The notes: generated by a model from the sequence alone, not told the origin. A DNA stretch of 64,000 bases from an uncultured Candidatus Saccharibacteria bacterium (GCA_964565615.1 CAZMFO010000001.1:19513-83512); one strand, 5' to 3'; positions 4,498 through 43,695 are shown, counted from the stretch's first letter. Made by a program: numbers and translations.

Positions 4498-7335
4498 CGT
4501 TGGAAGGAAAACAAAACTTTTGAAAAGTCTGTAGACCAGCGCCCAGAAGACAACAAATGGGTGTTTTATGATGGCCCGCCATTTTTGACCGGTACACCAC
4601 ATCACGGACATTTGCTGGTATCAACAGTAAAAGATACTATGGGTCGATACCACACTATGAAAGGCCAGCGAGTTGAAAGACGATGGGGCTGGGATTGTCA
4701 TGGTTTGCCGGCTGAAGTCTTTGTTGAAAAACAGCTTGGTATCAAGAATAAAAAAGAAATTGGCACCAAAATTAGCATTTCTGAATATGTTAAACAATGT
4801 CGTTCGGCTATGGTAAAAACTGGTACGGAGTGGGAGGACACGATTGAGCGTCTGGGTCGCTGGGTTGAGTTTGAAGGCGCCTACAAAACCATGGACAAAG
4901 AGTACATGGAGAGTGTTTGGTGGGCGTTTAAGGAACTTTACGATAACGGCAAAATCTATGAGGGCGAAAAGATTTTGGTATATTGCACCAAAGATGCAAC
5001 ACCAATTAGCAAGTCCGAAGTAGCTATGGAAAACAGCTATCAAATGGATACGGACCCGAGCGTTTATGTATATTTCAAATTAGAAGATAGTGTCTCAAGT
5101 GAGCAGGCTACTGACGATCAGACTTACATGCTAGCATGGACAACTACACCATGGACACTTCCGGCCAATGTGGCAGTGGCTGTCAATCCAAAGATTGAGT
5201 ATTCTTTGATCGAGCACGAGGGCAAGAAGTTTTATGTTGCTACCGAGGCTGTAGAGCGGGTAATGCAAGACGCCAAGAAACAACCTTTAGATTATAAGTT
5301 GCTTAAAAAGATAAAAGGCAAAGAGCTTGTTGGTAAAAGATACGAGCCATTGTTTGAGAACCACGGCCCAGATGCTCATAGAGTGCTTTTGGCTGATTTT
5401 GTAACAGCAACTGATGGAACTGGTTTGGTTCACGAAGCGCCGGCCTATGGTGAAGAAGATTATGAGCTTTGCAAAAAAGAGGGAGTACCGGTTGTTTCGA
5501 TTGTAGACGAAAATGGCATCTATACCTCCGGCCGTTGGCTAGGTGAAAATATCTGGGAAATCAACAAAACTATCGCCAAGACTCTGGTGGAAGAGGGCAA
5601 GGCGCTTAAGGTTGAGTATATTCGGCATGAGTATCCGCATTGTCATCGTTGTGGCACCAAGTTGATGTATCGGGCGCACCCGAGTTGGTTTATGGATATT
5701 CAATCGCAAAAGAAAGAAATGCTAGAGGAAAACGCCAAGACCAATTGGGTGCCAGACAATCTACGCACTGGGCGGTTTCATAACATCATTGAACAAGCTC
5801 CAGATTGGAACTTATCTCGTGATCGCTATTGGGCAACGCCAATCCCTGTTTGGAGAGGTGAGCGCAACGATGGAACTGAGGTTATTAAGGTTTTTGGTAG
5901 CTATCAAGAATTTGAAGAGTTTACCGGCAAGTACATGGATGACTATCACTTGCCAGAAGTGATGAATGTCACCTTTGAGTTGGATGGTGTGCAGATGCAT
6001 CACATTGGCAAAGTTTTGGATTGTTGGTTTGAAAGTGGCTCAATGCCGTTTGCTCAATTCCACTATCCGTTTGAAAACAAGGCCAAGTTTGAGAGTATGT
6101 TCCCGGCAGATTTTATTATTGAGGCCATTGATCAGACTCGCGGATGGTTTTATAGCCTGATGGCAGTCAATGTTGGACTGTTTGGCAAGGCTCCATGGAA
6201 GAACTTGATCTGTACGGGGTTTATCAATGCGTCAGATGGTAAGAAAATGAGTAAAAAGCTCAAAAACTACACTAATCCGATGGATTTGATAGATCAATAT
6301 TCAGCAGATAGTTTTAGGTTTTTGATGCTTTCTAGTCCTCTAACTAATGGGGAAAACTTTAGTTTAGCTGATAAAGATGTCGGCGTAATTGCCAGAAAAC
6401 TTAGCATGGTTTGGAATATGTACGATTTCTTTACTATGTATGCCGAAGTTGACGGCTGGGAGTTTGATCCAACTAAACCATTTGGGTTAGACCCAAATAA
6501 GCTAGATAATTCGCTTGATGCCTGGATAGTTTCGAGGCTACATCAGCTGAATAAAGAAGTTACCGAGCAATTGGATAGTTATGATATAGCAAAAGCAATC
6601 GAGCCAATTTTACCATTTGTTGATGATGCATCTAACTGGTATGTAAGGCGAAGTCGCCGTCGTTTTTGGAAGAGTGAGGACGATGACGATAAATCAGATG
6701 CTTACAGGACATTGCATTATGTTTTATTAAAACTTGCAGTTATTCTAGCGCCATTTACGCCTTTTCTAGCAGAAGAACTGTATCAAAAACTTGGCGGAGG
6801 GGTAGAGTCGGTGCATTTGCTGGATTGGCCAGCAAATTATTCTGTTGATCAGACCATTTTGGACGAGATGGCAACTGTGCGTAAGTATATCAACGATGGT
6901 TTGGGCCAACGAGCCGAAGCTGGTATCAAGGTGCGTCAACCATTACTTAGCGTCAAGATACCCGGTATGGGTAAAAAGGTTGGTTTTGGGTCAATCCTGA
7001 TGGACGAACTTAATGTTAAGCAGGTTGTTGTTGGGAAAGAAGTAGCAATCGACACCAAGATTACAAAAGAGCTTAAACAAGAAGGCCTAATGCGTGAAGT
7101 AATTAGGCTTGTACAAAATGCTCGCAAGCAGGCCGAACTTAATGTAGATGAGCGTATTAACCTTAGCTTGCTAACTAACGATAAAGATCTAAAAGAAGCA
7201 ATACAGCAATATAGTCAGATTATAAAAACCGAAACCTTGGCTACTAATCTTTCTGTTGATAAAATTACAGATAATCACAATAAATTAAGTATAGATGGGG
7301 CAGAAATAGCCATAATGATAAAAGTAAATAAATAA
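4438..7335 (+). CDS. ileS: Isoleucyl-tRNA synthetase
   Basis: HIGH motif PHHGHLL, KMSKS motif KMSKKL, editing domain region. 965 aa. SD AAGGAGGA 5 nt upstream of ATG 4438. Confidence 0.95.
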   Translation: MKFKHGTRRRALEYEKDWAKRWKENKTFEKSVDQRPEDNKWVFYDGPPFLTGTPHHGHLLVSTVKDTMGRYHTMKGQRVERRWGWDCHGLPAEVFVEKQLGIKNKKEIGTKISISEYVKQCRSAMVKTGTEWEDTIERLGRWVEFEGAYKTMDKEYMESVWWAFKELYDNGKIYEGEKILVYCTKDATPISKSEVAMENSYQMDTDPSVYVYFKLEDSVSSEQATDDQTYMLAWTTTPWTLPANVAVAVNPKIEYSLIEHEGKKFYVATEAVERVMQDAKKQPLDYKLLKKIKGKELVGKRYEPLFENHGPDAHRVLLADFVTATDGTGLVHEAPAYGEEDYELCKKEGVPVVSIVDENGIYTSGRWLGENIWEINKTIAKTLVEEGKALKVEYIRHEYPHCHRCGTKLMYRAHPSWFMDIQSQKKEMLEENAKTNWVPDNLRTGRFHNIIEQAPDWNLSRDRYWATPIPVWRGERNDGTEVIKVFGSYQEFEEFTGKYMDDYHLPEVMNVTFELDGVQMHHIGKVLDCWFESGSMPFAQFHYPFENKAKFESMFPADFIIEAIDQTRGWFYSLMAVNVGLFGKAPWKNLICTGFINASDGKKMSKKLKNYTNPMDLIDQYSADSFRFLMLSSPLTNGENFSLADKDVGVIARKLSMVWNMYDFFTMYAEVDGWEFDPTKPFGLDPNKLDNSLDAWIVSRLHQLNKEVTEQLDSYDIAKAIEPILPFVDDASNWYVRRSRRRFWKSEDDDDKSDAYRTLHYVLLKLAVILAPFTPFLAEELYQKLGGGVESVHLLDWPANYSVDQTILDEMATVRKYINDGLGQRAEAGIKVRQPLLSVKIPGMGKKVGFGSILMDELNVKQVVVGKEVAIDTKITKELKQEGLMREVIRLVQNARKQAELNVDERINLSLLTNDKDLKEAIQQYSQIIKTETLATNLSVDKITDNHNKLSIDGAEIAIMIKVNK

Positions 7336-37278: not shown

Positions 37279-38373
37279 ATGTCAGAATTAACCGTAAATA
37301 TAAAGAGCTTACTTGACGAAATAAATAATGCTTATCGTCAGTTGGGTATAGATAATTTACAGGTTGAGATAAAGAGGCTAGAGCAAGAAAGTACTCAACC
37401 AGAGTTTTGGAATAATCCTAACAATGCTCAAAATATAATGAAGGATATTTCTAGCTTGCAAGCTCGCGCAAATCCGTGGCTAGAGTTAAAAAAGTCAACC
37501 GAGGAGTTGGTAGATCTAGAAGCACTAGATGATTTATCTCTAAAACAAGAGCTACAAAATACATATTCTAAGCTTTTGGACGAATATCAGGTTTTAAAAA
37601 AGCAACTAGCTTTTAGTGGGCCGTATGATGACCACGATGTCATTTTGTCAATATATGCAGGGGCTGGCGGAACGGATGCACAGGACTGGGCATCAATGTT
37701 GTTGCGGATGTATGTACGCTGGGTTGAGTCCGAGGGCGGTCAGGTAGAGATTATTGAACAGTCAGTAGCCGACGAGGCCGGAATAAAAAGTGCCACCTGT
37801 AGCATTTCGGGGATCTCTTTTGGGTATGGAAGGCTAAAAAGTGAGCATGGTGTACATAGACTAGTTAGGCTTAGTCCTTTTAATTCTGATAATTTGCGAC
37901 AGACTAGCTTTGCTAAAGTTGATATTATCCCTAAAATTGATAAACCGAACGAGGTTAAGATTAGCGATGACGATCTTAAAGTAGATGTTTTTCGGTCGGG
38001 TGGGCACGGTGGTCAATCGGTAAACACTACCGATTCGGCGGTGCGAGTAACTCATCTGCCAACTGGCATTACGGTAAGTATTCAAAATGAGCGGTCGCAA
38101 TTGCAGAACAAAGAAACAGCGTTAACCATTTTAAGGTCAAAACTGGCTCAACTTCAGCTTATTCAACATAAAGATAAGCTACAGGATATCAAGGGGCCAA
38201 ATCAATCGGCGGAATGGGGTAATCAGATTAGAAGTTATGTACTGCACCCTTATAAACAGGTTAAAGACTTACGGACTCAATATGAAGCAAGCGACCCTGA
38301 TAAAATACTAAATGGTGATATTAATGGGTTGATAAACGCCTATATTGAGCAAAACTTGGGTTCTCAAGCATAA
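37279..38373 (+). CDS. prfB: Peptide chain release factor 2 (single uninterrupted ORF)
   Basis: SPF tripeptide (RLSPFNSDN). GGQ ([23 protein letters not shown]). Confidence 0.9.
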   Translation: MSELTVNIKSLLDEINNAYRQLGIDNLQVEIKRLEQESTQPEFWNNPNNAQNIMKDISSLQARANPWLELKKSTEELVDLEALDDLSLKQELQNTYSKLLDEYQVLKKQLAFSGPYDDHDVILSIYAGAGGTDAQDWASMLLRMYVRWVESEGGQVEIIEQSVADEAGIKSATCSISGISFGYGRLKSEHGVHRLVRLSPFNSDNLRQTSFAKVDIIPKIDKPNEVKISDDDLKVDVFRSGGHGGQSVNTTDSAVRVTHLPTGITVSIQNERSQLQNKETALTILRSKLAQLQLIQHKDKLQDIKGPNQSAEWGNQIRSYVLHPYKQVKDLRTQYEASDPDKILNGDINGLINAYIEQNLGSQA

Positions 38374-38397: not shown

Positions 38398-39081
38398 ATG
38401 ATTTTATTGGATAGAGTTACAAAAGTTTATGGCAAATCTAACACGGCGCTTGATAGGGTTAGCCTACATGTTGAGCCCAAAGAGTTTGTGGTGATTGTGG
38501 GGCAAAGTGGTGCCGGCAAGTCAACCTTTTTGAAGTTACTCACCAGAGAGGAACGCCCAACGAGTGGAAAAATTATTGTCGGAGGAGTGGATTACGAACA
38601 TCTAAAGGATAAAAAAATACCTTTATTACGGCGAAAGATAGGGGTGGTGTTTCAAGATTTTAAATTATTGCCAAATAAAAATGTTTTTGAAAATGTTGCC
38701 TTTGCGCTAGAAATTGTTGGTATGGGTAACAAAGAAATACAATACACCGTACCTCGTGTTTTGAATATCGTCGGTTTAAGTGGTAAAGAAAAGAGCTATC
38801 CAAAAGAATTGTCTGGTGGCGAACGGCAACGCGTCGCTATCGCTAGAGCTATTGCTCGGCAACCTAAGATATTGATTGCCGATGAGCCTACCGGCAATTT
38901 GGACCCTAAACATGCTTGGGATGTAATAGCAGTTTTAGAAAAGATTAACAAGTACGGAACAACTGTTTTGCTGACCACTCATAATCAAGATATTGTCAAT
39001 AAATTAAAGCGTCGTGTTGTAACCATAACCGATGGGAAGATAGTGAGTGATAAGGTCGGCGGGGGTTACAAATTATTATGA
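38398..39081 (+). CDS. ftsE: Cell-division ABC ATPase FtsE
   Basis: GQSGAGKST Walker A, LSGGERQRVAIARA, Walker B ILIADEPTGNLD. Confidence 0.9.
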   Translation: MILLDRVTKVYGKSNTALDRVSLHVEPKEFVVIVGQSGAGKSTFLKLLTREERPTSGKIIVGGVDYEHLKDKKIPLLRRKIGVVFQDFKLLPNKNVFENVAFALEIVGMGNKEIQYTVPRVLNIVGLSGKEKSYPKELSGGERQRVAIARAIARQPKILIADEPTGNLDPKHAWDVIAVLEKINKYGTTVLLTTHNQDIVNKLKRRVVTITDGKIVSDKVGGGYKLL

Positions 39082-40022
39082 AGCGAAAGTTAATCACCTT
39101 GTCTAGAATCTTTAAGGGCGGACTGACTAATTTTGTGCGTAATGCTTGGTTAGCAATTGCCGCAATTGCTGTGATGGTCATTACCTTAACTATTGTACTT
39201 TTTTCGGTTATTGCCAACGCTACCTTTACAAACACTATAAAACAGATTACCGATAAAGTTGATATATCAATATATTTAAAAGACGAAACAAGCGATAAAG
39301 ACAAAGATCAAATACTTGAGAAACTAAAGTCCTTAACTAATGTAGAGAGCGTTTCGTATCTATCTAAGGATGATGCCAAAAACCAATTTATTGAAAAAAA
39401 CAAAGAAGACATAGAACTTAGATTATCTATCGGTCAGTCTGACGGCAATCCAATTCCGGCAACAATTCGGATTAAGCCCAAAGACATCAATAAGCTAGAA
39501 GAGCTAAGTAACGAGATCAACAATCAAGGCTGGGAGAGGTTCATTTTAAAGATTTCTTACCAAAAAGACAGAAAAACAGCTATTGATAATATCGCTAAAG
39601 CAACAACATTTTTCAAAAAGGCTAGTTTAGCAGGAGTTGTAGTATTTGCCATAATCTCTATGCTGATAATTTTTAACACTATTAGAATGGCTATCTTTAA
39701 TAGGCGAGAAGAGCTGGATATTATGCGCTTGCTGGGTGCCAGCACTTGGTATATTCGGGGCCCGTTTGTGGTTGAGACGGTGCTTTACGGTGTGATAGCG
39801 GCGTTGATCTCGGTATCGTTATGTAGGTTGTCACTAGAAGTTGCAGTATCGGCCTTTGGTGCTAACAGTTTAGGATTATTAGATATAGAATATGCCACTC
39901 AGTATTTCTCTAGACATTTTTGGTATGTTTCGGGTATTCAGTTAGCGGTTGGAGTACTAATCGGGGCAGTATCGTCTATGGTTGCTACCAGACGATATCT
40001 GAAGTTTAAAAGCAGTAAATAA
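39078..40022 (+). CDS. ftsX: Cell-division permease FtsX
   Basis: Four-TM FtsX layout with a large extracellular loop. Start overlaps the ftsE stop. Confidence 0.85.
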   Translation: MKRKLITLSRIFKGGLTNFVRNAWLAIAAIAVMVITLTIVLFSVIANATFTNTIKQITDKVDISIYLKDETSDKDKDQILEKLKSLTNVESVSYLSKDDAKNQFIEKNKEDIELRLSIGQSDGNPIPATIRIKPKDINKLEELSNEINNQGWERFILKISYQKDRKTAIDNIAKATTFFKKASLAGVVVFAIISMLIIFNTIRMAIFNRREELDIMRLLGASTWYIRGPFVVETVLYGVIAALISVSLCRLSLEVAVSAFGANSLGLLDIEYATQYFSRHFWYVSGIQLAVGVLIGAVSSMVATRRYLKFKSSK

Positions 40023-40099
40023 GACATTATTTTGTCAAGTAAGAGAGCCAATACTTAATTGGGGAGTTGTGATTATCAAATTTGGAGGTCTATGTTATT

Positions 40100-41260
40100 A
40101 TGTCAGTAGGTAGCTTTACCAAAAGAAAAATGAAAAACAAGTTAAACCAATGGTTAAAAATGTCTGGCGGTGCACTGCGACACCTATTTTTAGCTGTGCT
40201 TATGTTGGTAGTTGTGGCTGGTTTTGGCTTTGGTACTGCTTTACAGGTACGGGCTCAATCTCTTCAAGACCAGATAGATACATTAAAAAAGCAAAACATA
40301 GAGAATAAAAACAATGTTGAAAAACTGCAGGAAGTCGCCATCAGTTACCAGAATGCTATAGAAACCCTAGAACACGATATTGCCGAGACACAACAAGCAA
40401 TTGAGGCGAGCCATAAGCGTCAAGCAGAACTAGAAGCCCAGATTAAACAGGCAGAAGCTGATCTTGTTTTGCAAAAAGATTTTTTGAGCAAGAATATCAG
40501 AGCTATGTATTTAGAGGGGGATATTTCAACCCTAGAAATGTTAGCCTCTAGCAATAATTTAAGTGAATTTGTTGATAAACAACAGTATCGCAACTCTGTA
40601 AAAGAAAAGATAAGTCAATCTGTTAGTAAAATTAGCGATCTAAAACATCAATTACAAGCTCAAAAAGAGCAGGTGGAAGTAGAGCTAAAAGAGCAAAACA
40701 GCAGTAGAGTGCAGTTAGCCAGAAGTCGTGCCGAACAAAGTAGGTTGCTAACTATGAACGGAACGGAGCAAGCAGAGTTTAATAATAAAACAAAAGCAAA
40801 CGAGCAAAAAATTAAAGAATTACAGGAGGCTCAGAGGGCGCTTGAGCGGAGTATCGCATCTGGGAAGTTGGTTAGTCAAGGTCCGGTTAAGCGAGGTGAT
40901 GTAGTTGGAACGGTTGGCAATACCGGATTTTCAACAGGCCCACACTTGCATTTTGAAGCCCGAAACAGTGAGGGAGTAGATATGAACCCAAATAATTATA
41001 TTGGAAGTGGTTGGGACAGACCTGTTGAAGGTGGCTACATTTCTCAAAACTATGGTAATCCCGATTCGGTTTATTATAAAGGCTATCATACTGGGATTGA
41101 CTATGCTGGAGTGTCGGGTCGTCCTGTTAGGGCGGTTGCCGATGGCGAGATTGTCTGGCGAGGATGCAAGGGGTCCTGTAACCTTAATTATGGATATTAT
41201 GTTATGATACAACATACTAACGGCATAATTAGTTTATATGCCCATATGGTTCCAAACTAA
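40100..41260 (+). CDS. EnvC-like coiled-coil protein with a C-terminal M23 (LytM) domain whose halves appear in reversed order
   Basis: Long coiled coil. GTVGNTGFSTGPHLHFE (normally the C-terminal M23 HxH box) comes before YHTGIDYAG...RPVRAVADGEIV...LYAHM (normally the N-terminal HxxxD box). SD GGAGG 11 nt before ATG 40100. Confidence 0.7.
   Translation: MSVGSFTKRKMKNKLNQWLKMSGGALRHLFLAVLMLVVVAGFGFGTALQVRAQSLQDQIDTLKKQNIENKNNVEKLQEVAISYQNAIETLEHDIAETQQAIEASHKRQAELEAQIKQAEADLVLQKDFLSKNIRAMYLEGDISTLEMLASSNNLSEFVDKQQYRNSVKEKISQSVSKISDLKHQLQAQKEQVEVELKEQNSSRVQLARSRAEQSRLLTMNGTEQAEFNNKTKANEQKIKELQEAQRALERSIASGKLVSQGPVKRGDVVGTVGNTGFSTGPHLHFEARNSEGVDMNPNNYIGSGWDRPVEGGYISQNYGNPDSVYYKGYHTGIDYAGVSGRPVRAVADGEIVWRGCKGSCNLNYGYYVMIQHTNGIISLYAHMVPN
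40525..40610 (+). repeat. Gene-conversion-like tract shared with the downstream paralog (41666-41751), including a 48-nt identical core
   Basis: 40543-40590 is identical to 41684-41731. Both encode TLEMLASSNNLSEFVDKQQYRNSVKEKIS. Confidence 0.85.
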
Positions 41261-41273
41261 GAAGGTAGTGAAT

Positions 41274-42425
41274 ATGTCGTCAATTAAACTTCTATCAAGA
41301 AAAATCATAAGACCAAGCATAAGGATACTCTTAATGGGTTTAGTGATTATGATGATGGTTGCTTCTAGTTCGTTATGGATTAGTAGCGTAACGGCTGAAT
41401 CCACTCAAGAAGAGATAAGTAGATTAATACAAGAGAACTCCAATAATCAAAGCACAGTTTCTCGCTTGCAGGTTGAGGCTACTAGTTATCAGGATGCAAT
41501 TAATAAAATGCAGTCCGAGATTGCCGATTTAGAGGCCAAGTTACAGATAAATATCACCGAGCAGAATAGGCTTTCGGAGGAGATAAAAAAAGCCGAAGAG
41601 GAGCTGGCTAAGCAAAGGGATTTACTTGGTAAGAACATTAGGGCAATGTATGTAGAGGGTGAAATGTCAACCTTAGAAATGCTAGCCTCTAGCAATAATT
41701 TAAGTGAATTTGTTGATAAACAACAGTATCGTAACTCTGTTAAAGAGAAAATTAGCGAAACAGTCGTTAAAATTAACGACTTAAGACATCGGCTTAATGC
41801 GCAAAAAGAGCAAGTTGACAAACTGGTTGCCGAGCAAAACCAACAAAGAGAAAAACTGGCAATTAGTAAAAACGAGCAAAATCAGCTTCTCGCTTATAAT
41901 CAAAACCAGCAAACGGACTTTAATAACAAGATCAAAGCTAACTCTAGTCGGCTTCAACAGTTAATTGCCTCGCAACGCAATGCTAACTTTGCCGATGGTG
42001 GATATTACTTTATTCGTTTTTCTGGGCCGGTCGGAGAAATTAATCCGGCAAATTATGAGTATCGCGACTATGGGCATAGTCAGGCAGATGCACCTTGTCC
42101 CGGCCCTCCTGTTAGTGCAGATTCTATTGATCGGTGGGGTTATTGTACTCGGCAGTGCGTGTCTTATGCGGCATGGGCAGTGATGGCATCTGGAAGGTCA
42201 GCGCCTATAAGGTGGGGAGATGCTAAGAATTGGGTGGCTTCGGCATACGCCAATGGAGTGCCCGTTCTTCGCTCTGATCCAAAAAAAGGCGATGTAGCCA
42301 TTAGTACAAATGGATATTGGGGTCATGCTATGTATGTAGAAAGCGTTAACGGCAATCAATTTACTACATCCGAGTATAATACTAACCTAGACGGAAAACT
42401 GTACTTTAGAACAAGAACTTTCTAG
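41274..42425 (+). CDS. PcsB-like coiled-coil protein with a C-terminal CHAP amidase/peptidase domain
   Basis: Coiled coil paralogous to the upstream gene. CHAP Cys in GYCTRQCVSYAAW. His in GHAMYVESV. Confidence 0.75.
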   Translation: MSSIKLLSRKIIRPSIRILLMGLVIMMMVASSSLWISSVTAESTQEEISRLIQENSNNQSTVSRLQVEATSYQDAINKMQSEIADLEAKLQINITEQNRLSEEIKKAEEELAKQRDLLGKNIRAMYVEGEMSTLEMLASSNNLSEFVDKQQYRNSVKEKISETVVKINDLRHRLNAQKEQVDKLVAEQNQQREKLAISKNEQNQLLAYNQNQQTDFNNKIKANSSRLQQLIASQRNANFADGGYYFIRFSGPVGEINPANYEYRDYGHSQADAPCPGPPVSADSIDRWGYCTRQCVSYAAWAVMASGRSAPIRWGDAKNWVASAYANGVPVLRSDPKKGDVAISTNGYWGHAMYVESVNGNQFTTSEYNTNLDGKLYFRTRTF

Positions 42426-42492
42426 AAAAACACTAGAACTTCTGGGGATTAATCTACTATAATAAGAAGCGAAAACAGAAGGGAGTTTTTTG

Positions 42493-43695
42493 GTGCAGGA
42501 TGAAAAAAAACGAGGAATCAGTAAGGGTATCTTTAAGGCTTGGTTAGTTGGTCTAGGTCTTTTTGCGATATTTAGTTTTGGTTATGGTTTGGGGTCGGGC
42601 AATCTTAAGATAGGGGTTAGGCAATCAAAACAGAACAGTCAACTATCATCAAGTCTTGATTTTGCGTCTGTAGAGAAGGTTTATGATTTATTGCGGAATA
42701 ATTTTGATGGTCAGCTTGATTTTACAAAGCTAACAGACGGTATGAAGCAGGGGCTGGTCAATGCAATAGGCGACCCCCATACCGAGTTTATGACAGTCGA
42801 ACAAACTAAGGAATTTAACGATGATCTTAATGGAACATTTAGCGGAATAGGTGCTGAACTTAGCAAAGAAAAAGATATGATTGTTGTGGTTTCGCCAATT
42901 TCTGGGTTTCCTGCCGAGAAAGCCGGACTTAAGGCTAAAGATGCAATAGTTGAGGTTGACGGAGAGAATACTTATGGATTAAGTCTAACAGAGGTAGTAA
43001 GCCGAATTCGGGGTCCTGAAGGAACCGATGTTAAATTGAGGGTAGTTCGTAATCAGCAAGAAGATTTAAAGTTTACAATAAAGCGCGCTAACATCACTAT
43101 TGCTAGCACCGAAGGAAAGATGCTTGAGAATAATACCGGGTATATTAAAATAACTAGATTTTCTGACGATACAACTCAGTTAACAAGAGATCTGGCCAAG
43201 ACTTTGAAGCAACAAGGTGCCAAAGACTTCATCTTAGATCTTAGGGGTAATCCGGGAGGATTGCTTGATAGTGCAGTTGATGTTTCAAGTATTTGGTTGT
43301 CAAGCGGAAAGACCGTTTTACAAGAAAAGCGTGATGGGGTTGTCATTAAGACATATAAAGCAAAGGGAAACGCTTTACTAGAGGGAGTGCCAACCATCGT
43401 TCTGATAGATGGCTCTAGTGCTAGTGCAAGCGAAATAGTTGCCGGAGCTTTAAGGGATAATAATGCCTCAAAATTACTTGGCGTAAAGAGTTATGGCAAG
43501 GGCAGTGTTCAAACTGTTGAAGAATTAGCAGACGGTTCATCATTAAAAGTGACTGTCGCTCACTGGTTTACTCCTAATGGTCAAACAATTGATAAGCAAG
43601 GTTTAGATCCAGATATTAAAGTCGAGTCGTCTTCGGATTCGGAAAGTGATGTTCAATTAAAGTCAGCCCAAGAAGAACTCTTAAAGCAACGATAA
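42493..43695 (+). CDS. C-terminal processing (tail-specific) S41 peptidase with PDZ
   Basis: FSGIGAEL, PDZ (PAEKAGLKAKDAIVEVDG), DLRGNPGG catalytic Ser region. Confidence 0.85.
   Translation: MQDEKKRGISKGIFKAWLVGLGLFAIFSFGYGLGSGNLKIGVRQSKQNSQLSSSLDFASVEKVYDLLRNNFDGQLDFTKLTDGMKQGLVNAIGDPHTEFMTVEQTKEFNDDLNGTFSGIGAELSKEKDMIVVVSPISGFPAEKAGLKAKDAIVEVDGENTYGLSLTEVVSRIRGPEGTDVKLRVVRNQQEDLKFTIKRANITIASTEGKMLENNTGYIKITRFSDDTTQLTRDLAKTLKQQGAKDFILDLRGNPGGLLDSAVDVSSIWLSSGKTVLQEKRDGVVIKTYKAKGNALLEGVPTIVLIDGSSASASEIVAGALRDNNASKLLGVKSYGKGSVQTVEELADGSSLKVTVAHWFTPNGQTIDKQGLDPDIKVESSSDSESDVQLKSAQEELLKQR

Follow-up and report, generated by a model that had tools for sequence, protein, structure and literature searches.

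Organization of the ftsEX locus

The window examined here, that is, the whole stretch of 64,000 nucleotides (nt) that was analysed, comes from an uncultured Candidatus Saccharibacteria bacterium (GCA_964565615.1, CAZMFO010000001.1:19513-83512) and contains an ftsEX operon in which ftsE and ftsX are followed by two genes for long coiled-coil proteins, the first ending in an M23 and the second in a CHAP hydrolase domain (Table 1). This gene order and these domains had been proposed in a first-pass annotation of the sequence, and profile searches confirmed both. FtsE exceeds the cut-off of the NCBIfam equivalog TIGR02673 (280.7 bits vs 264.85), and the best NCBIfam match of FtsX is FtsX_Gpos, at 209.5 bits and under the cut-off of 225. 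In the Pfam matches, FtsX shows an extracellular domain between the first and the second transmembrane segments (TM1 and TM2), followed by a permease domain at the C-terminus, and its gene adjoins ftsE, with an overlap of 4 nt. The open reading frame (ORF) of the M23 gene opens at a TTG at 40082, and a GGAGG at 40084-40088 stands before an ATG at 40100, from which a product of 386 amino acids would be made, 100% identical to the database protein P0001 of the same length; similarly, the ORF of the CHAP gene opens at an ATG at 41238, and a GAAGG at 41261 precedes an ATG at 41274, which lies 13 nt past the M23 stop and would give a product of 383 amino acids. Judging from these sequences, the ATGs at 40100 and 41274 are the likely true starts; the Pfam domain stretches were obtained on the full ORFs, Peptidase_M23 on 40082-41260 and both CHAP and CC_PcsB on 41238-42425. 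No terminator-like site was found inside the four-gene cluster, which, together with the short intergenic gaps and the ribosome-binding sites, is in keeping with a single operon of ftsE, ftsX and the M23 and CHAP genes.

Table 1. Features of the ftsEX locus, in window coordinates
Feature	Position	Strand	Evidence or remark
ftsE (FtsEX ATPase)	38398..39081	+	Pfam ABC_tran 1.9e-37
ftsX, permease-like subunit with extracellular domain	39078..40022	+	Pfam FtsX_ECD 1.9e-16 (residues 61-149), FtsX 8e-13
Coiled-coil M23 gene (product N-terminally anchored or secreted; permuted M23)	40100..41260	+	Peptidase_M23 3.5e-22
Antiparallel coiled-coil hairpin of the M23 protein, residues 61-259	40262..40858	+	AlphaFold2 model, EnvC alignment
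Shared tract, copy 1 (exact core 40542-40590)	40525..40610	+	Hairpin tip and start of returning helix, predicted FtsX-docking segment
C-terminal half of canonical M23, placed first	40874..40996	+	GNTGFSTGPHLHFE (HxH, residues 279-292)
N-terminal half of canonical M23, placed second	41015..41251	+	HTGID (HxxxD), YAHM
Coiled-coil CHAP gene, PcsB-like architecture	41274..42425	+	CHAP 2.2e-14, CC_PcsB 28.0 bits
Shared tract, copy 2 (exact core 41683-41731)	41666..41751	+	Direct repeat of copy 1
CHAP catalytic domain	42132..42380	+	Cys (RQCVSY) and His (WGHAMYVE); Pfam CHAP 2.2e-14
S41 C-terminal processing protease with PDZ	42490..43695	+	Pfam Peptidase_S41 9e-50

Two predicted hydrolases on a common coiled coil

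The M23 and CHAP proteins are alike in their N-terminal two thirds, where they align at 4e-67 with 38% identity, and beyond this part they have unrelated catalytic domains; their sequences confirm them as paralogs through the coiled coils. The CHAP protein had been called PcsB-like, a designation that holds for its architecture, since besides having a CHAP domain it can be aligned from end to end with PcsB (4cgk, E 7.6e-6). Its CC_PcsB match, against a cut-off of 27 bits, lies just upstream of and into the DNA tract shared by the two genes, and with the NCBIfam PcsB equivalog NF046104 it scores 31.7 bits, under the cut-off of 450. The Cys and His of the CHAP domain are both covered by alignments to the solved CHAP domains 2lrj and 2k3a, and the domain is predicted to be catalytically competent. 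By analogy, from operon context and homology mapping, the CHAP protein may also contact the FtsX extracellular loop. No description of PcsB-like proteins in Saccharibacteria was found in open-access papers and preprints.

The M23 domain has an unusual order of its parts. Pfam PF01551 matches it as two stretches, and along the chain (residue numbers of the M23 protein count from the ORF opening at 40082) the HxH segment comes first, followed by GYHTGIDYAG (334-343) and then by YAHM (386-389), with the C-terminus only four residues past the YAH histidine. In a profile search against solved structures, the M23 peptidase 3slu is matched at its residues 222-297 by residues 302-381 of the query and at its residues 301-340 by residues 253-293, and these reversed halves indicate that the chain starts about two thirds of the way through a canonical M23 domain. 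As judged from these alignments, the catalytic domain is circularly permuted, with the HxH half before the HxxxD half. Five residues, H288, H290, H336, D340 and H388, are invariant in a set of 34 homologs and align to the catalytic motifs of 3slu, and the permuted domain is predicted to be catalytically competent. A structural model of the domain by itself (40847-41257) is confident and all-beta, with a predicted local distance difference test score (pLDDT) of 88.4 and a predicted template modelling score of 0.85, and gives no Foldseek match in the PDB, although by sequence profile the domain finds solved M23 structures at 7.6e-27; the missing structural match may stem from the changed topology or from a limit of the search.

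The permuted order is not particular to the window. It was found in all of the 108 M23-bearing proteins among the best 120 homologs, as well as beside ftsEX in one locus each of Berkelbacteria and Gottesmanbacteria (L004, L008), and a search of 1.84 billion representatives, which returned 68,702 proteins at E <=0.001, gave a single permuted motif order in 64 of the 144 top representatives not already in the homolog set. The canonical order is the one seen in ftsEX-linked coiled-coil M23 genes of Firmicutes, Actinobacteria and other phyla, and also in unlinked coiled-coil M23 genes of Cyanobacteria and of some Saccharibacteria. In open-access papers and preprints, no description of a permuted M23/LytM domain was found. 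Two proteins of 302 and 290 residues (P0136 and P0137) carry two complete M23 domains in tandem, the junction of which mimics the permuted order; such tandem proteins are a plausible precursor state, in which a duplication would be followed by the loss of both ends. More distant permuted homologs (P0039-P0094) bear a short additional C-terminal tail with a conserved motif of Cys and aromatic residues, for instance GGPAACNYNTYY, and the window protein is without this tail. A permuted M23 domain implies that the fold tolerates new chain termini, and it affects annotation, because Pfam reports two partial stretches, as well as structure-based searches.

The intact catalytic residues bear on the possibility that the M23 protein is not a hydrolase but an EnvC-type activator of another enzyme, either its CHAP neighbour or an amidase encoded elsewhere. 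Its stalk is homologous to that of EnvC, several sources name the homologs 'septal ring factor EnvC', and LytM-type activators are common (PMC7668044). The LytM domain of EnvC, however, has lost its metal ligands (PMC11627006), whereas here the five catalytic residues are invariant; the protein scores only 21.4 bits with the EnvC equivalog NF008644, against a cut-off of 270; and some Saccharibacteria (L091, L092) carry only the M23 gene after ftsEX. An activator role is for these reasons considered unlikely. The previous description of the M23 protein as EnvC-like would thus apply to its stalk, but not to its catalytic domain, in which the residues are intact and the halves permuted.

The stalk and its putative FtsX-docking segment

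The AlphaFold2 model of the full-length M23 protein (mean pLDDT 77.1) shows two helices, at residues 61-144 and 166-259, which would form the antiparallel hairpin. A profile built from diverse stalks and compared with the PDB aligned without gaps to residues 40-242 of E. coli EnvC (E ~3e-5), and a narrower profile of 12 close sequences recovered generic coiled coils only and not EnvC. In a Foldseek search with the full-length model, the top match was the EnvC chain of a Vibrio cholerae FtsEX-EnvC structure (8tzl_E, 1.8e-6).

Under the EnvC alignment, residue n of the window M23 protein corresponds to residue n-18 of EnvC. The DNA tract shared by the two window genes, which encodes residues 149-177 of the M23 protein, would then map to EnvC 131-159, and the 204-nt tracts found in two related genomes, L088 and L093, which cover residues 124-191, to EnvC 106-173. 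In the EnvC-FtsX crystal structure, the FtsX-binding sites of EnvC are residues 114-128 and 141-160, and the predicted sites on PcsB are 101-114 and 130-148 (PMC7668044); in RipC, the loop between the two helices also touches FtsX (PMC11627006). By homology, the hairpin tip and the second FtsX site would fall within the window tract, and both FtsX sites, with a little sequence on either side, within the long tracts. The first-pass suggestion that the tract marks the FtsX-contact segment of the coiled coil is therefore supported by homology, as EnvC 131-159 overlaps the interface at 141-160 (PMC7668044), and the segment may be regarded as the putative docking site.

Gene conversion superposed on protein constraint

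The shared tract had been described as an identical core of 48 nt within a highly similar stretch of about 85 nt. The repeat is real, but its exact core is 49 nt, one more than first reported, within a stretch of 86 nt, of which 79 are identical in the two genes. The core occurs twice in the window, against no occurrence expected from shuffles, and a direct repeat of 238 nt with 78% identity encloses the tract. In agreement with the earlier annotation, the same peptide is encoded in both genes, the identical 30 residues being STLEMLASSNNLSEFVDKQQYRNSVKEKIS, and the seven differences per 86 nt are scattered, all synonymous, and flank the exact core.

Related operons were fetched through exact-protein look-ups, first from ten loci (L081-L090) and later from L093. 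A codon alignment was made of eight M23/CHAP pairs, including that of the window genome, and L093 was added afterwards. Among the 34 homologs, the tract segment is the best-conserved part of the coiled coil, with a conservation of 0.79-0.83 at residues 136-170, which is comparable to the 0.87 of the HxH core. In the stalk flanks, nucleotide identity between the paralogs of the same genome is 48-59% in seven of the eight genomes and 39-44% in L089, the most divergent, and the M23 copies all have their closest counterparts, at 62-75%, among M23 orthologs, which indicates that the duplication predates these lineages. In the tract itself, taken as 87 nt, the cross-genome identity of M23 with CHAP copies (0.75, standard deviation 0.05) equals that between orthologs (0.75). 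Read from the sequences, this floor of ~0.75 is what fixed amino acids and saturated synonymous sites leave, with no conservation of the DNA as such.

The same floor bears on a regulatory element, or an RNA structure, required at the nucleotide level in both genes. An identical run in two genes of one operon is what such an element would produce, but between genomes the tract is only ~75% identical, the differences in the codon alignment fall mostly at third codon positions, and M23-CHAP pairs from different genomes match each other as well as orthologs do. With the tract at its synonymous-saturation floor between genomes, a functional element at the nucleotide level was rejected, and we hold this explanation to be extremely improbable.

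Within some genomes, the paralogs are much more alike than this floor. The two copies of the tract have an identity of 0.92 in the window genome, 0.85 in L082 and 1.00 in L088, and the paralogs share exact runs of up to 49 nt in the window, 22 nt in L082, 200 nt in L088 and 204 nt in L093. In the last two, the paralogs show no difference over 198 nt of the tract, and the tracts of the two genomes differ from each other at 44 of these 198 positions; in the flanks, paralogs differ at 70-84 of 165 nt and orthologs at 27-48 of 165. Identity within and divergence between the two genomes imply that conversion went on after their lineages split. Moreover, the two long tracts are nearly co-extensive and cover the same residues, and residues specific to a lineage are common to both of its paralogs, as with SVEDKI in L082, YRTSVKNKIVSTLEKI in L088 and DVSTLVML in L093. 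The first-pass alternatives of gene conversion or strong constraint thus both apply, within-genome identity exceeding between-genome identity in the window, L082, L088 and L093, and the sequence comparisons support recurrent gene conversion superposed on strong protein constraint. Five of the eight genomes in the first comparison are without a recent event, the identity of their paralogs staying at the floor, and conversion is therefore episodic.

For the window alone, the 49 nt could also have arisen without conversion, from strict conservation of the amino acids and codon bias in an AT-rich genome (the G+C of the window is 40%). The segment is the most conserved of the stalk, the five genomes at the floor show paralogs no more alike than expected across genomes, and the same codon is used at identical residues in 50% of cases already outside the tract. 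In the tract, the corresponding rate is 48% in the cross-genome M23-CHAP comparisons, and with this empirical value the 16 consecutive identical codons of the window have a probability of ~1e-4, or of 1.3e-6 from codon usage alone. Exact runs between genomes, in 112 comparisons, have class medians of 13-14 nt and reach 40 nt at most, the second longest being 23 nt, and a run of 49 nt was found in none of the 112. In addition, the tract of the window CHAP gene encodes residues of the M23 type, STLEML and YRNSV; the CHAP orthologs in L081, L082, L084 and L086 have STIEML. Codon bias is excluded for L088 and L093, in which conversion at the same place is beyond doubt, and for the window it is a quite unlikely explanation. 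The M23-type residues of the CHAP copy also indicate, as far as the sequence can tell, that the M23 gene was probably the donor and the CHAP gene the recipient of the window tract. The single run of 40 nt, accompanied by 89% identity in the tract, joins the M23 copy of L084 to the CHAP copy of L087, the other 111 comparisons giving 23 nt or fewer; this likeness may be the legacy of an older conversion or of an exchange between lineages.

A last alternative is an assembly artefact, produced by collapse of the repeat, or by a chimeric join, during metagenome assembly. All the sequences are metagenome-derived, a second assembly of the window genome was looked for and not found, and the CHAP gene of L090 contains a run of N. 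Nevertheless, independent assemblies from different samples show the same phenomenon with different tract sequences, the window core grades into its flanks through the seven synonymous differences per 86 nt, unlike a k-mer collapse, and the M23 and CHAP genes are both full length and in frame, so that we regard an artefact as very improbable. It had been proposed that absence of the identical tract from close relatives would point to an artefact. L081, the closest relative found, indeed is without an identical DNA tract, but the deduction was mis-specified: as longer tracts of their own occur in other lineages, the absence in L081 is indicative of lineage-specific conversion. The run of N in L090 lies at ~5425-5530, just upstream of the shared tract, and the repeat between the paralogs probably breaks short-read assemblies.

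Operon states, neighbouring genes and history

Three states of the operon were found. The permuted M23 gene alone follows ftsEX in two Saccharibacteria loci (L091, L092); the CHAP gene alone does so in L001-L003, L005-L007, L009-L013 and L017, which include a Nanosynbacter genome; and both genes are present in the window clade, that is, in L081-L090 and L093. The simplest reading of this distribution is a tandem duplication of a stalk-M23 gene, the second copy of which gained CHAP, with loss of M23 in some lineages, and the three states resemble a replacement of the catalytic domain with the intermediate preserved. The possibility that CHAP-only genes are chimeras of recombination between the tracts, with a left half of the M23 type, received no support, as both halves of their stalks score closer to the CHAP type. 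In two Firmicutes loci, from Ruminococcus (L053:3531-6766) and Faecousia (L070:1944-4508), two coiled-coil M23 genes follow ftsEX in tandem, which indicates that duplication of an FtsEX partner is not unique to Saccharibacteria.

In the window, the operon is preceded by genes for an M16 peptidase and for prfB and followed by an S41/PDZ protease gene and pyrG, and the order M16-prfB-ftsE-ftsX-M23-CHAP-S41(-pyrG) is kept in L081-L090 and L093 as far as the contigs extend. The S41 protease scores 324 bits with NCBIfam TIGR00225 (cut-off 218.6). Its gene stands downstream of a hydrolase gene in most of the related loci across phyla, often with prfB upstream, and the arrangement spans Saccharibacteria, Firmicutes and Actinobacteria. 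Loci with an S41/PDZ gene after the ftsEX-linked hydrolase include L019, L025, L027, L029, L031, L032, L040, L050-L052 and L057, as well as L059, L060, L063, L068, L070 and L074. This conserved adjacency hints that the protease is functionally tied to the hydrolases, which it may process or remove. In many bacteria, prfB, which encodes release factor 2, contains a programmed +1 frameshift; in the window (37279-38373) it is one unbroken ORF of 364 codons for amino acids, with no sign of such a frameshift.

A model for two hydrolases sharing FtsEX

The interpretation that we favour, and consider quite probable, is that of a single FtsEX operon encoding two direct hydrolases on a shared stalk of the EnvC/PcsB type, whose docking segment is both constrained and recurrently converted. 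Such a system would start with an old tandem duplication, after which one of the copies would have exchanged its catalytic domain, giving rise to the present pair of permuted M23 and CHAP. The hairpin tip and the adjoining helix ends would dock between the two FtsX extracellular domains, and no other part of the stalk would be under so strong a protein constraint. Staying similar in the two adjacent genes, this docking segment would be a substrate for recurrent short gene conversion, and the last event in the window, probably from M23 into CHAP, would have left the identical core of 49 nt. By analogy with published FtsEX structures, the binding of ATP by FtsE would move the FtsX extracellular domains, which would grip the tip and pull the bound stalk, and the catalytic domain would be freed from autoinhibition. 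Given that one EnvC stalk is bound per FtsX dimer (PMC7668044), the two hydrolases would probably alternate on, and compete for, the same site. Finally, the two enzymes would cut different bonds in septal peptidoglycan, with the M23 enzyme expected to cut peptide cross-links and the CHAP enzyme expected to act as an amidase or endopeptidase.

Several points weigh against this interpretation. One FtsX dimer binds one EnvC, and that FtsEX is shared by two stalks is something that we infer. At the hairpin tip, where docking would take place, the AlphaFold2 model has a pLDDT below 50 (residues 150-154 and 156-163), and the alignment to EnvC pairs low-complexity coiled coils, so that it is persuasive chiefly as an ungapped, end-to-end match. 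With regard to conversion, five of the eight pairs in the initial alignment do not rise above the floor in tract identity, and for the window itself the evidence is one run of 49 nt with a probability of ~1e-4. Every genome compared is a metagenome assembly, and two exact-pattern scans of JGI metagenomes recovered no second assembly of the window genome.

A more far-reaching proposal, which seems to us somewhat doubtful, is that the tract is an adaptive and portable FtsX-docking cassette and, separately, that the permuted M23 is an unrecognised topological class spread over the Candidate Phyla Radiation (CPR). Under the first part, the two hydrolases would have to fit the one FtsX that a minimal genome encodes, and conversion limited to the two FtsX interfaces would keep them co-adapted as this contact drifts, leaving the other portions of the stalks and both catalytic domains free to diverge; the boundaries of the tracts would then offer a map of the FtsX-binding module that requires no experiment. 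Under the second, the returning helix of the stalk would run almost directly into the HxH strand of the permuted M23 domain, so that FtsEX could gate this enzyme by pulling on the active site itself, and not through a restraining arm as in EnvC.

To the first-pass annotation, the analysis adds the intact, permuted M23 domain on an EnvC-like stalk and the recurrence of conversion across lineages. A bacterium with a reduced genome and no outer membrane would have two FtsEX partners with different chemistries encoded in the ftsEX operon itself. The conversion is confined to ~200 nt that map to both FtsX interfaces of EnvC, which leads to a prediction of the docking module from sequence only and would illustrate clearly how concerted evolution can be limited to the interface between two proteins. 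These observations are relevant to cell division, to peptidoglycan hydrolases and to the biology of the CPR.

Comparison with known FtsEX partners

The known coiled-coil hydrolase partners of FtsEX are EnvC, PcsB, RipC and CwlO, with one partner in each of the systems studied. With EnvC, which has been solved from E. coli (6TPI, 8HD0), V. cholerae (8TZK/8TZL) and Pseudomonas aeruginosa (8I6O), the window M23 protein shares the link to ftsEX, an export signal or anchor, the long antiparallel coiled-coil hairpin and the C-terminal M23/LytM domain. However, EnvC activates the amidases AmiA and AmiB, whereas the window domain keeps its catalytic residues and is permuted, and the segment matching the restraining arm of EnvC is much shorter in the window protein.

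PcsB of Streptococcus pneumoniae (4CGK) has in common with the window CHAP protein a coiled-coil stalk, a C-terminal CHAP domain and a cell without an outer membrane. The match between the two is nevertheless very distant, and the window CHAP gene sits inside the ftsEX operon, beside a paralog whose catalytic domain is of another kind; PcsB is described as the only partner of FtsEX, while the window operon encodes two. RipC of Mycobacterium tuberculosis (8IDC) and CwlO of Bacillus subtilis are likewise direct hydrolases on a coiled-coil hairpin, and in the hairpin of the RipC type the tip loop and the adjacent helix ends lie between the FtsX extracellular domains (PMC11627006). They differ in their NlpC/P60 catalytic domain and in being single partners, and CwlO also needs the cofactors SweC and SweD.

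The gene order ftsE, ftsX, coiled-coil M23 gene and S41 gene, often with prfB upstream, is also that of operons of Firmicutes, Actinobacteria and other phyla. Unlike the window, these operons of other phyla have the canonical M23 order, HxxxD before HxH, and the pairing of M23 with CHAP was found in none of the ftsEX-M23-S41 loci fetched from them. As for the permutation, a precedent in a peptidoglycan-hydrolase domain exists in the circularly permuted NlpC/P60 families (YaeF/poxvirus G6R, LRAT-like) (PMC6403190), which differ from M23 both in fold and in catalytic type.

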